64,000 bases of DNA, taken from assembly GCA_951406725.2 (NCBI GenBank), contig OX597825.1:46004001-46068000 (forward strand). Direction: 5' to 3'. This document shows, piece after piece, positions 14,372 through 55,944 of this stretch. Made by a program: the position numbers and the translations under genes. The stretch comes from Octopus vulgaris (lineage: Eukaryota). Every line of letters begins with the position of its first letter. The first letter of the stretch is position 1. Below the pieces are notes generated by a model. It was not told where the DNA came from and ran no database searches. It was given only the letters and a program-made list of their open reading frames with translations.

Positions 14372-15212
14372 TCGCTAAAGAGACTACTAACAAATGCAAA
14401 GCTTTACAAAACAACCACAAAACCAACGGTTGAAAAATGTGGGCGCCCGAACTGTGGAACCTGCCCCCACCTGCTTGAAGGCTCGGATTTCCTTTTCAAA
14501 CAAGGACAGAGGTTCACAATTAAAACTAGTTTCACCTGTGCCTCTGAGAACCTAATTTATGTAATAACCTGCTCAGGTTGCAGTCATCAGTACATTGGAC
14601 AAACGAGTTTAACTTTGAGGAAGAGAATCACTCTGCATAAGGAGCAAATCCGTTTCCTGCAATACAGACAAATTCCTCTTAGTGAACACATAGAAAAATG
14701 TGCAGGTAACATCAAACCAAATTTTACAGTCTTCCCTTTCTACCAGTGCAAAGACACAATCTCTCAACTAGAATGCTTAAATAAAGAAACTTTTTTCATT
14801 GAAAAATACAAAACGCGTCTTAATAAGCACGCATAACCAACTTTTATATTTTTATATTTTTACATATTACATCACTGTACATAAATCCCCTACTAAACAA
14901 GGCCCTCTTTTTTTAAACCTGTCTCCTTTCTGTACACATATTTATTCCCCACCCAAAACCTAAACAGTTATCTCCCTTACACACAACAATAAAAATAATA
15001 ACAACCAATTACCTCCCATTACTTGTCAACTTGTAAAATCATTCACTTGTGAATTTCATTACAAACAACATGGACCGAATTTCTTCTTAAGAAAGAATAT
15101 ATTTTCATATAAATTAATCATTATATCATGAATAGCGATCGCGAAACCGGTCGATACATTAAAAATTATACTATAACCATGTAAGTGTGCGTATTTTCCT
15201 TTTTTAATTTCT
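14372..15212 (+). mobile_element. Neptune-like PLE 3' fragment (GIY-YIG endonuclease + pLTR)
   Basis: KCGRPNCGTC linker finger, NLIYVITCSGC...YIGQT, LHKEQI, EHIEKC; stop at 14836; HHR-like motif at 15124; flanked by (TA)n. Confidence 0.85.
15124..15156 (+). ncRNA. Minimal hammerhead ribozyme with A3-U8 core variant
   Basis: tatc-ATGAATA-gcgatcgc-GAAA-ccgg-TC-gata. Stem I is tatc/gata; stems II and III are palindromic. Confidence 0.6.
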
Positions 15213-15961
15213 TATATATATATATATATATAAATTTTGTATGACTCTTATTTCGTCATTCTTTCTATCAGCCCTTTCACACTTACTTCATTCTTTCCAC
15301 TCTTCTTTCTTTTGTTCCCCATCTCTTACATTTCCTAGCTTTCTCTTCATTCTCACCTTCCCTACTCTTTCATTTCATTCTCTCCCTTTTATTCTTGTCC
15401 CTCCCTATTTCTTATGTCCCTTTGCCTCTACCTCTCTTCTCTCTCCCTACGTGATCGGTGTTCAGCCAAGCCAGACCTTTCTTTCTTGGTTCGACCATCA
15501 TCCATGCAACATCTATATTCCTCACCATGCCTGTCATCTCTTATGTCCCTGCCATAAGGCTTCACTCTCACACACGCCAGCTTAATTTAATTTGTCCTTA
15601 GTCGAAAGACACCTGTTGTTTATGTCCTGTTATTTGCATTTGTATTTGTGTACCATTTCTCCATTTTTTTTCCCGTCCTTGTTTTCATAAACATTCACTG
15701 CTTTCTTCCAAGGAATCTAATGCTCTTAGCTTAGTTTTTGCTTGGGGCTGGCCAGATTGGAGCAATCTTGAGTATAACTAGTTGAAATTGCAAAGATAAT
15801 CTGGAACTCGAATGAGGAAAGAAAACTTTGAATGACCTGTCCGTGTTTTTTCTTGTCCTTTTTTTGTATCATCTGTCTGGATGTTTTGCATTCTTACATA
15901 TATATACACACACATACATATATATATATATATATATATATATATATATATATATAAATAT

Positions 15962-16953
15962 ATCATCATCATCATCATCATCATTTAACGTCCGTTTTCC
16001 ATGCTAGCATGAGTTGGATGGTTCGACAGGGGTCTAGCAAGCCATGGAGGCTGCACCAGGTTCTAGTCTGATTTGGCAGTGTTTCTACAGCTGGATGCCC
16101 TTCCTAATGCCAACCACTCCATGAGTGTAGTGGGTGTTTTTTTACGTGCCACCGGCACAGGGGCCAGAGCAAGCTGGCAAACGGCCACGATCGGTTGGTG
16201 CTTTTACGTGTCGCTCAATAAAGAGAATGAATGGGAGAAAGAGAGTCTGAAATGTCGACCCAACAGAGGGACCAGCTATCCGAATTGATAGTACCTTGGT
16301 AGATAAAGCAATTAAAAGTATGAAGACAGGGAAAGTCTCCAGCCCATCAGGAATTACCACAGAGATGCTGAAAATATCTGGCAGTGTCGGCTATAGCCTA
16401 GTCACCCGTATAGTTAACCAGGTGATACACGAAGGAGTCATACACAATGTCTGGTGTAGCAGCACCATAGTCAACTGCAACAAAGGTAAAGGTGACGCTT
16501 TAGATACAAATAATTACAGAGGTATCAAGTTGTTGGATCAGGTAATGAAGGTCATGGAGAGGGTCATAGCCCAATTAATTAGGGAGAGAATCGGTTTAGA
16601 TGATATGCAGTTTGGGTTCATGCCAGGGAAAAGTACCACTGATGCTATATTTCTGGTAAGACAGCTGCAGGAGGAATACCTAGCCAAAGATAAACCACTG
16701 TACCTGGCTTTCATTGACATGGAGAACGCCTTTGACAGGATCCCTCGAAATGAGGAAACTAGGGATAGATGAATGGTTGGTGAGAGCTGTGTGAGCCATG
16801 TACAAGGACTCCGTCAGTAAGGTGAGGGTTGGCAACGACTACAGTGAAGAATTCTAGGTAGAGGTAGGGGTCCACCAAAGCTCAGTCCTCAGCCTCCTTC
16901 TATTTATAATAGTCCTCCAGGCAATAACAGAGGAATTCAAAACAGGATGTTCC
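15962..16953. mobile_element. RTE LINE fragment with 5' inversion
   Basis: Minus-strand 3' tail (15962-16212) abuts a plus-strand RT segment (NNYRGIKLL, QFGFMPGKSTTDAIF, FIDMENAFD). Confidence 0.8.
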
Positions 16954-17330
16954 TTATCTCTTATTCTACTTTATGTTTTTATTTCTTTTGTTGCTTTTTT
17001 CCAATTTTGCTAAATCATATTTATATGTGTATCTAATTTTATTATCCTTATTTTTACTTTTATTACTCTTCTATTACTTTTATTTCTTACTTTATTTTTT
17101 AACTTTTATCTTTTCTTTCTATCTTATACACACTAATTAAATATAAACTCAAACCAATCTATTTAACATTCTCTCTATGCTGAATAGTGATACAGTATGG
17201 GCAGATTTTTGAAATCCAACGAACCTTTATACAAATATACCTTTTCAAGGAGATATGATAAACCTATTATAATGGGTAATACTACGCATACTTTTTATTT
17301 TGTGAGGTAATCTTTGGACTAACAATGTTT

Positions 17331-17427
17331 GCGGCTGAAGAGAGCTTTAAACCATCTTTTATATCAATAATATACCTATGCTGATGTAATAACAGATTGT
17401 TTATAAAGCTTGAAACACGTGTACCAC
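17331..17427 (+). ncRNA. Hammerhead ribozyme with extended stem II
   Basis: gcgg-CTGAAGA-gagcttta...taaagctt-GAAA-cacgtg-TA-ccac; palindromic stem III ACACGTGT. Confidence 0.65.
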
Positions 17428-17635
17428 GATATCCTTTGTGTTCTGTTTTCAATTTATATTTTATATATATATATATATATATATATATATATATATATAT
17501 ATATATCCTCAGTTTGCCTCCATGTGTGGCCCTACCAGGAATCTAAGACTCCAGATGGCATCACTCGGAATCATTGGCACACACAAGCTCTTCCACCATG
17601 CCAAGGGGTGATCATCAGCAGAGTATATATATATA

Positions 17636-53400: not shown

Positions 53401-53407
53401 ATATATA

Positions 53408-53960
53408 TCATCATCATCGTTTAACGTCCGCTTTCCATGCTAGCATGGGTTGGACGGTTCAACTGGGGTCTGGGGAGCCCGAAGGCTGCACCAGGCCAGT
53501 CAGATCTGGCAGTGTTTCTACAGCTGGATGCCCTTCCTAACGCCAACCACTCTGAGAGTGTAGTGGGTGATTTTATGTGCCCCCGACACAGGTGCCAGAC
53601 GAGGCTGGCAGACGGCCACGCTCGGATGGTGTTTTTTATGTGCCACCGACACAGGTGCCAGACGAGGCTGGCGAACGGCCATGATCGGATGGTGTTTGTT
53701 ACGTGCCCACAGCACGGAGGCCAGTCGATGCGGTACTGGCTACGGCCATGTTCGGATGGTTTTCTTATGTGCCACCGGCACTGGTACCACAAAGATACAA
53801 ATTCCATTGATGTTCATCTATTTTGATTTGGTTTTTGGTTTTCACTTGCCTCAACAGGTCTTCACAAGTGTCACAAGAAGGAAGGTATGCACAGGTGGAC
53901 TGACTACGTCCCAGGTAGGGGCCACGGGTTATGGCCTCACTAGTCTTGCCGGGTCTTCTC
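53408..53960 (-). mobile_element. RTE-type 3' UTR/tail, close relative of 329-968
   Basis: Highly similar reverse complement of 329-968. Confidence 0.8.
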
Positions 53961-54639
53961 ACGCACATATACATATATTTACACACATACTCATACGTGC
54001 ATGCATGTACCCACTCATACACACACATACATAGGTAAGCTAAAATATACATACATCTTGAAGCTGGCTGGATGTGGTGTGCCATATCAAGTCAATACAA
54101 TGTAGCCCACTACTAAATGTAGCATATAAATGTAACACTTCAAGGTTGGAGTAACCAGCGAACATCAAATAATTAACACTAAGAAGGAAGAAATGTTATT
54201 TACATATATTTATTCCCTTACCCCACAGGTTGTTAAAGAGCCAGTAGCAATTCTAGTGATAGTGATGACAAGGATGACTTGCTGGTTAATAGTTGATATG
54301 ATTGTCTGTCAGTAGAGAGTGAAAGACTAAGGTAGCCATGGTGCTGATTAGAAAGGAAAACAGGATAAAAGCAGCATTGTCTTTCTTATGGCCGAACGCC
54401 TCTCTTAGCATGTGAAGGGTGAATGGAAGTGCTGCTTTTGGTTAAGGCTGATGCAAAACATAATTTCTGTAATTCATTGTGGTAGCACACATTTCTCTTT
54501 GAGAATGTTTTCTGACACACGGTTTCTATTTTATTATTACTTATATTCCACCGCTTCATCATTTAATGGGAGAAAAGTACTGAAGAAATATATATATATA
54601 TATATATATATATATATATATATATATAAAGGCTTGTTG

Positions 54640-54735
54640 TTTATACCCAAAAAATGGACTTGTTATTTATACTCAAGAAATGGACTTGTTTGTGCCCAAG
54701 AAATGGATTTGCTGTTTGTACCCAAGAAATGGACA
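54640..54735. repeat. Short tandem repeat, 4 x ~23-27 bp
   Basis: cccaagaaatggact-like unit repeated four times. Confidence 0.75.
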
Positions 54736-55944
54736 ACGCACAGGTTATACTTATTTCTATAACATCATTCTCTATTAGTAAATTTCGTTTCTTGTAACAA
54801 TTTAAAGGAATGTTAAAGACAATTTATTTTAATAACATGAACTGTCTGGATAAAGAATCAAATAAAAGAAAATGAAAAACAGTGGAAGGTTTTGTAATTA
54901 GGAGCAGAGTAAGGTTGAATATCTAAAAGAATTTGCAACATGTAAGATGTTTGTAAGCAATTCCATAACAACAAAAACCGTTCCTTTCACTGGAACATTT
55001 AAATTTCGTTTGTGTCTAAATATTTTCATTCTTTGAAACCACGGAAAAACCCTGACAAAAATTTGTGCTACATCTGTTTTGTCAGTGAACAAGTCTCGGT
55101 TTCAAAGCGACAAAAATATTGAGATTGAAATGAGATTTAAATCTTGGAGTGAAACCAAATTTGTGTGTGTGTGTGTGCATATGTTCTTGAGTGGTATACA
55201 AACATCTACGCTGCAATTGTTTTTGTTAATACCATTATGTAGAAGACAGAATCGAAAAAATTTTGCGCGCAAATTTTTGTTTTCATCTTTGTTTATAGCA
55301 TAGATAATTTTTTCTGAAATGCCACCTTTGGCCTGCAGGACGCATTGGTTGGCCTGAGGCAATAGTTGAAAACACTTACTGGCAAACAGGGGCGGAGGAC
55401 CAGGAGAATTCACACGATCCAATTTTTACCCTATAGAAAATGGATATTCTTTCTAACCACAAGGTTCCAGGTACAGTCCCACTGCATGGCACCTTGGGGA
55501 AACACTGGAGTTTAAAGGTCAAGGTCTGATGATGTTAACTTTCCAAGCGCGCATTTTTTTCCACATACATTTAAAGCAAGTTGTTTTATACCTATTACAC
55601 TAAATTTTAATTATTTTTTTGCTCAGGTCAAATGCTAGAGTTTAAAGATCATGGTCTGACGATGTGAATTTTCCGAGTCCTCTCCCCCACCCACCGTTCA
55701 CAAGTGCGCATTTTTTTAAATATTTGTTTACAGCAAGTTGTTTTACACCTATTACACTATTTTCTTTTTTGGCTGTGGTGAGATGACTCGCAACATTCAT
55801 GATGTGAACTTTCCAAGTCCTTTCCCCCACCTCCCATTAGCGAGCGCACATTTTTTTCCATATTCATTTACTACATGTTGTTGTACACCTATTACACTGA
55901 TTAAAAAATTTTTATTTGCTCAGGTCAAGCACTTTAGTTTAACA

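Follow-up and report, generated by a model that had tools for sequence, protein, structure and literature searches.

A stretch of 64,000 nucleotides from Octopus vulgaris (contig OX597825.1, positions 46,004,001 to 46,068,000; hereafter the window) carries motifs that, judged by their sequence, are minimal type I hammerhead ribozymes in the 3' tails and repeats of several families of Penelope-like elements (PLEs). The pair formed by core positions 3 and 8 differs between these families, and its A3-U8, U3-A8 and G3-C8 forms are family consensuses and not decay. We think it probable that the pair is fixed in each family as C-G, U-A, A-U or G-C, and that these hammerheads cut the RNA of their element slowly, as strand-swapped dimers or together with the element's protein. 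Families with a non-canonical pair are called here the A, U and G families after base 3, and papers given by PMC number are cited for particular passages of their text.

The initial annotation of this DNA had listed several 7-nt cores, and every one of them was found in the window, several on the minus strand (3912+, 15128+, 17335+, 21884+, 29725-, 35894-, 36293-, 52672+, 53208+, 55085+ and 62958+), together with additional copies at 17986-, 34564+, 34975+, 53185- and 62655-. Bases 3 and 8, which had been described as always complementary, are so in all window copies, but genome-wide two amplified lineages carry U3·G8. The proposed layout of stem I, 7-nt core, stem II, GAAA, stem III, UH and stem I' fits 15128, 21884, 36293, 3912 and the pair 62655/62958, but not the decayed copies 55085, 52672 and 17335 or the deletion-type copies 53208/53185: 55085 is a G3-C8 copy with AAAA instead of GAAA and a broken stem I', 52672 and 17335 pair less well than other members of their C3-G8 families, and 53208/53185, like most of their subfamily, are missing the first stem I' base. 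Among the non-canonical copies, 15128+ (A3-U8), 21884+ (U3-A8) and 36293- (G3-C8) are the best; each has 4-7 bp in stem I, closes stem II with a G-C pair and contains GAAA, UH and a perfect 6-nt palindrome as stem III. U4, G5, A6, A9, G12-A15.1, U16.1, H17 and G10.1-C11.1 are present in the A-U, U-A and G-C families alike. The cores of 15128 and 36293 lie outside both CUGANGA and the published U3-A8 form, within which the C-G and U-A families fall.

A descriptor that left positions 3 and 8 free matched seven window sites, compared with 1.3 on average and 4 at most in 30 local shuffles, and two of the seven (41562 and 57428) resemble chance matches; 36293 was missed because the descriptor does not allow its extra base after A9. 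An Rfam scan of the window returned 56 matches at E<=1 and none to a hammerhead family. Since the canonical copies were also unmatched, the Rfam models do not recognize this hammerhead subtype.

Family letters at positions 3 and 8

The genome searched comprises 2.8 Gb in 227 contigs; pattern counts are exact matches and refer to motifs, of which many insertions carry two, and letter tallies for the G family and its sister family cover the first 100 matches listed. Among close copies, G3 and C8 were found in 40 of 40 aligned matches of the G family (some of these rows being one copy seen twice) and A-U in 29 of 31 rows of the A family, while two sets of U-family rows had U-A in 33 out of 34 and 25 out of 26. 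Because such sets favour likeness to the query, two unbiased tests were used, a fixed-position sample and genome-wide patterns with bases 3 and 8 free. The sample, 140 stretches of 10 kb taken at round-number positions (1.4 Mb), gave 27 matches to a stricter descriptor, compared with 0.9 per shuffle in 10 shuffles; 15 were C-G, 8 U-A, 3 G-C, none A-U and 1 U·G, so that 26 of the 27 are Watson-Crick. The scaffold common to 15128 and 53208, searched with bases 3, 7 and 8 free, had 3,106 genomic matches and none for the reversed control. These comprised 1,918 U-A, 901 A-U, 189 U·G, 2 C-G, 1 G-C and, by subtraction, 95 others (3.1%, including 1 G-G), which puts the Watson-Crick share at 2,822 of 3,106 (90.9%) and that of U·G at 6.1%. 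The G family pattern had 5,052 matches and no control match, with G3-C8 in 97 of the 100 listed, and U3-A8 was also found on three unrelated scaffolds.

The same letters persist in related organisms. G3 and C8 showed no change at 3% or more in contigs from four public runs of three organisms, A3 was unchanged in contigs from four runs of four organisms, and at U8 of the A family C made up <=0.2% of depth in three of the runs and in a single contig of the remaining one. Close-copy consensus, genome patterns and persistence in related organisms thus all uphold the family-specific variant cores proposed from the window, and with over 7,000 exact copies lying outside the CUGANGA descriptor, searches based on it would indeed miss them.

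Comparisons between relatives point in the same direction: as read from the sequences, sister families differ by double compensatory changes at 3-8. The A-U and U-A families have a short stem II and the palindrome in common, their endonucleases are 62% identical, and a distant relative has C3-G8. Similarly, the G family and its sister family share 54% identity over 742 aa, an extra G and a similar 5-bp stem II, and 98 of the 100 copies listed for the sister are C3-G8. Bootstrap values were 100 for monophyly of the A-U clade, 94 for the clade of an old U·G family and 71 for the U-A clade. Within the A-U clade, subfamilies with well diverged endonucleases vary in N7, in loop II and, by compensatory pair swaps, in stem I, and keep A3, U8 and the remaining core. 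Taking one copy from each of 24 lineages, we counted 22 Watson-Crick pairs, two U·G and no other mismatch, and no family consensus among them had C-A, A-A or U-U. Shuffling the pairs gave a mean of 13.1 Watson-Crick and reached 22 once in 200,000. The lineages were hand-picked and are not phylogenetically independent, so this result is support and not a formal test; non-recurring single-copy matches (L110, L188, L196 and window 41562 and 57428) were left out.

Row L233p1499, in which a nested U-type element lies upstream of the A-type motif, was dropped after the FastTree analysis, and the IQ-TREE run covered 16 of 44 rows. The old U·G family branched first with a FastTree support of 0.989 and an IQ-TREE support of 55 for that node, and an order of change from C-G through U·G and U-A to A-U was rejected as unproven because of the latter value. 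A regain of stem I after deletion by the youngest U-A subfamily was also considered and set aside: the tree nests this subfamily among deletion lineages (13 of 38 rows), and two separate deletions explain it equally well.

Cleavage, damaged cores and alternative explanations

In hammerhead cleavage the 2'-OH of residue 8 is the general acid. The 3-8 pair may be needed only to position this group, in which case any Watson-Crick pair could serve. Long-term selection would then keep 3-8 matched and tolerate lapses, and lineages with a weakened core (U3·G8, A9C, A6U or a lost stem I base) could still amplify, either because cleavage is not needed at each insertion or because cutting is done in trans by a partner strand. 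A swapped dimer takes bases 3 and 8 from one of its strands and the cut site from the second, which would let an intact partner cut a mismatched copy; damaged or partner-rescued lineages may be the route from one 3-8 pair to another.

Predicted folds of the A and U families agree with a dimer, since swapped dimers were more stable than two monomers in three comparisons (-19.7 vs -12.2, -11.9 vs -8.0 and -14.3 vs -12.2 kcal/mol). PLE hammerheads with a short palindromic stem III are described as cutting weakly and as dimers (PMC4209133; review PMC6765202), and that of an Anolis PLE cuts only with the element's protein and is partly rescued by C3G/G8C (PMC11167929). In addition, base 17 tends not to form a Watson-Crick pair with base 3: the G clade uses U17 and not C17 and the A clade C17 and not U17, a pattern broken by the A17 of one young U-A subfamily. 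A G3-C8 mutant is stated to work better with G17 than with C17, with data not shown there (PMC3884650). A broader claim would be that all four Watson-Crick forms, A3-U8 included, are working natural ribozymes in one genome, that each swap rewrites the rule for the cleavage site at base 17, and that lineages cross through U·G or partner-rescued intermediates. We put this forward tentatively, as a possibility that we somewhat doubt.

Several observations weigh against active, selected ribozymes. The swapped dimer predicted for the G family (-28.8 kcal/mol) is about level with two monomers (-30.8) and offers no gain over them, and stem I can be lengthened by G3·U17 in this family. No 5' ends of genomic copies were found at the predicted cut in four families (in the G family, only starts before a TA repeat), a weak result because the loci had been chosen for holding the whole motif. 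For the Anolis element, cleavage is dispensable for insertion in vitro and no RNA-seq ends fall at the cut site (PMC11167929). A pairwise scan of a type III hammerhead gave rescue by the G-C swap alone and low activity for the other double mutants of the region (PMC9901934), an argument against A3-U8 and U3-A8 activity in that context. Furthermore, A-U and G-C have one origin each.

The same side of the balance holds the families whose core is damaged. The A/U scaffold has 189 U·G copies. U3·G8 is carried by a young subfamily, on a background without the first base of stem I', and is the consensus of an older family with a similar junction defect, which can alternatively be read as C3-G8 plus one inserted U. 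The young sister of the G family (3,345 matches) has A9C in 96 of the first 100 listed and an imperfect stem III palindrome; this A9C family (L305:619-675, G000:C17) is very young, with copies 98-99% identical, a few of which keep A9, and many have long open frames, up to about 1,312 aa. An A6U consensus with N7 free characterizes a very abundant family, about 20 of 141 sampled sequences (L139:9040+, L174, L179, L181, L182), and in the abundant family at L150:9262+ most cores are U4C (13 of 25 rows), beside canonical copies. Copy number alone is therefore no proof of activity, and the earlier statement that U4, G5, A6 and A9 stay fixed fails for these families. The term "selected", which had been applied to the variants, is apt on a long time scale but not for each burst of amplification, as families with damaged cores amplify; selection on the hammerhead core appears to be leaky. 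As a separate observation, in two separate lineages (window 53201-53240 and L280-L304) a single unpaired base separates stem I from position 3, or else the core has 8 nt. Both U3·G8 lineages share this unpaired-base junction, which may be a further variant or decay.

These data bear on three other explanations. The A3-U8 and G3-C8 motifs could be dead or nearly dead, each swap having arisen once in a founder under past or weak selection and spread since because the ribozyme is dispensable. The amplified A9C, A6U, U4C, U·G and stem I deletion families, the single origins, the low activity of swaps other than G-C (PMC9901934) and insertion independent of cleavage in vitro (PMC11167929) would all fit. 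A dead motif, however, should lose what the A-U clade retains, namely a full core and a stem I rebuilt by compensatory changes across diverged subfamilies. Moreover, each swap requires two transversions ending on a matched pair, and the 24 lineages include no C-A, A-A or U-U consensus, so that we judge this explanation unlikely.

Alternatively, the fold with its 3-8 tertiary pair may be maintained for a binding or folding role that serves the reverse transcriptase or RNA dimerization, cutting being incidental. Short copies and fold-back junctions, which begin 3-33 nt upstream of the core and continue across the cut site, are in keeping with this, but G5, the GAAA strand and U16.1-N17, which serve hammerhead catalysis, are present in every family consensus seen. 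The Anolis hammerhead, which cuts only with protein and whose uncut RNA is the main substrate for insertion (PMC11167929), also fits such a role, whereas the PLE clades without canonical hammerheads (PMC8557442) do not, and on balance we consider it improbable. Finally, random decay of canonical CUGANGA copies, or chance, has next to nothing in its favour beyond the two chance-like descriptor matches and some decayed copies in the window: the variants stand in the family consensuses, which are not uniformly CTGANGA, exact matches run to thousands against zero in controls, and the 3-8 letters are identical in related organisms. Family-specific 3-8 pairs in slowly cutting hammerheads thus remain our preferred interpretation.

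Penelope-like elements and motif copies in the window

The association of the motifs with PLEs was borne out by endonuclease remnants (PF01541) that adjoin them. A linker (CX4CxxC) and GIY-YIG endonuclease remnant of the A family (14363..14833, +; Pfam PF01541, E=6e-7) lies upstream, on the same strand, of the A3-U8 motif at 15121..15159 (+; descriptor match and family alignments), whose predicted cut is after 15152. The U family has a remnant with reverse transcriptase (RT) thumb, linker and endonuclease at 20322..21508 (-), and an inverted 3' copy of this element begins at ~21600 on the plus strand and bears the motif at 21877..21915 (+; descriptor match), with a 7-bp stem I, a 1-bp stem II and a predicted cut after 21908. 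A decayed U3-A8 copy of the same subfamily, with G12 and the palindrome mutated, lies at 17955..17993 (-), and the inverted pair 53185-/53208+ of the subfamily without the first stem I' base occupies 53153..53240 on both strands. Open frames of the U family occur in sampled loci L263, L272 and L273. By resemblance, the A and U families may be Neptune-like.

For the G family, a linker (CX3CxxC) and GIY-YIG remnant at 37208..37865 (-; PF01541, E=2e-5) lies upstream, on the same strand, of the G3-C8 motif at 36251..36300 (-), which has a 7-bp stem I, an extra G after A9, a 5-bp stem II, a palindromic stem III and a predicted cut after 36258. A second endonuclease remnant (28607..28929, -) ends at a run of N, of which there are 100 near 28.5-28.6 kb, and a decayed G3-C8 copy of a second loop-II subfamily is at 55078..55128 (+). 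The remnant at 37208..37865 is 97% identical to the open frame of sampled locus L262, where a G3-C8 copy has an uninterrupted RT-endonuclease frame of 1024 aa with PF01541 at 915-1005; Pfam returned no RT match in this frame, and its relatives carry RT labels. L262 also contains a 1.78-kb inverted copy, and the motif is present both there and in the frame-bearing element. Inverted pairs carrying the motif occur in the window as well as in the genome-wide pattern listings. A protein labelled Octopus vulgaris is 60% identical to the RT of one element. The G-family linker (CX3CxxC) and the CX4CxxC linker shared by the A and U families both fall within the CX2-5CxxC form of Neptune/Nematis elements; this linker before the endonuclease and the Hydra-type CxCX5C motif are both defined in PMC8557442.

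The remaining motifs are C3-G8. An element at window 29500-35210 consists of RT, CxCX5C linker, C-terminal endonuclease, an inverted 5' copy and two 3' copies in tandem with a spacing of 411 nt. Its RT and C-terminal endonuclease remnants (30160..32253, +; no Pfam match) are Hydra-type by the linker motif only; an assignment of 29.8-32.3 kb to Naiad was ruled out, because the RT precedes the endonuclease and the linker is CxCX5C. Its motif is carried by the inverted 5' copy (29638..29732, -) and, decayed, at 34557-34652 and 34968-35063 (+). A motif with a 103-nt stem-loop II lies at 35766..35901 (-; descriptor match), one with a 7-bp stem I and palindromic stem III at 3905..3983 (+; descriptor match), and a partly decayed one with a long stem-loop II at 17328..17430 (+; from family rows). 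Additionally, 52665..52708 (+) is a decayed copy of an abundant family (16 rows, 13 of them C-G), and 62616..62997 holds the inverted pair 62655-/62958+ on both strands.

Some further features were noted. Just upstream of the G3-C8 stem I, window 36314-36332 (-) resembles the 3' end of an intron, with a branch-point, a pyrimidine tract and YAG, and many short and fold-back copies begin near it; an intron end also lies beside the hammerhead of Drosophila Penelope (PMC4209133). A small contig (L001, G000:C87:8299-11000) contains a 100% identical copy of window 36150-36400 and is possibly an assembly duplicate. Tandem repeats of 353-362 nt with one hammerhead each, partly inverted and retrozyme-like, were seen at L186:2307-4560 (C3-G8) and L126:8600-9450 (U3-A8). 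Other non-LTR retroelements have left remnants (endonuclease and RT frames, assigned to families by eye) at 5284-7317, 16251-16772, 44008-46472, 49053-52376 and 60674-61273.

Relation to known hammerheads and significance

Natural U3-A8 covariation has been published (PMC3088659), with about 1,300 matches in Schistosoma mansoni PLEs (Cervera and de la Peña 2014, PMC4209133). The minimal hammerheads of metazoan PLEs in the latter work share with ours the type I order, the short palindromic stem III, G10.1-C11.1, the location in flanking repeats, the many families per genome and the U3-A8 covariation. Unlike them, the octopus elements include whole clades fixed for A3-U8 and G3-C8, as well as U3·G8, A9C and A6U families, and the A and U clades have no extra base after A9 and a stem II of only 1-2 bp; passages of the supplement to that work (file 1 outside the search) contain only CUGA and UUGA cores. 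The natural core variants of Perreault et al. 2011 (PMC3088659) likewise include U3-A8, stems II of 1-2 bp and tolerance of rare core changes, but they are isolated motifs and not transposon clades with thousands of copies, and the examined part of that paper names no natural G3-C8 or A3-U8.

The G3-C8 form is also known as the engineered C3G/G8C change (Anolis Poseidon, PMC11167929; PMC9901934; review PMC8495972), which partly restores activity, also in a PLE hammerhead. Those are laboratory mutants, whereas the octopus swap occurs naturally, in a family whose sister has C3-G8; the scan of PMC9901934 gave no rescue of A3-U8. The PLE hammerheads with short stem III of Lünse, Weinberg and Breaker 2017 (as given in the review PMC6765202) resemble ours in that stem III is palindromic and cleavage proceeds through dimers. 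The open literature searched, outside which the likeliest prior report (Lünse et al. 2017) falls, yielded no natural A3-U8 or G3-C8, and the supplement of PMC8557442 has no match to these motifs. The chances that the two natural forms are new to the literature seem to us about evenly balanced. What is added here is the genome-wide 3-8 table, the pairs of sister families and the families with damaged cores.

Structures and mutants have already revealed the 3-8 tertiary pair, and here evolution gives the full covariation set in sister families, a ready source of natural constructs with which to study the rescue of A-U and G-C swaps by context. Given the number of exact copies outside the CUGANGA descriptor, PLE hammerheads have probably been undercounted in the literature, and it would be worth re-scanning some elements described as hammerhead-free. 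Furthermore, intact, swapped and damaged cores side by side make it testable whether PLEs need the ribozyme or merely carry it. If all four pairs are active, a large share of animal hammerheads would escape any search that fixes CUGANGA.

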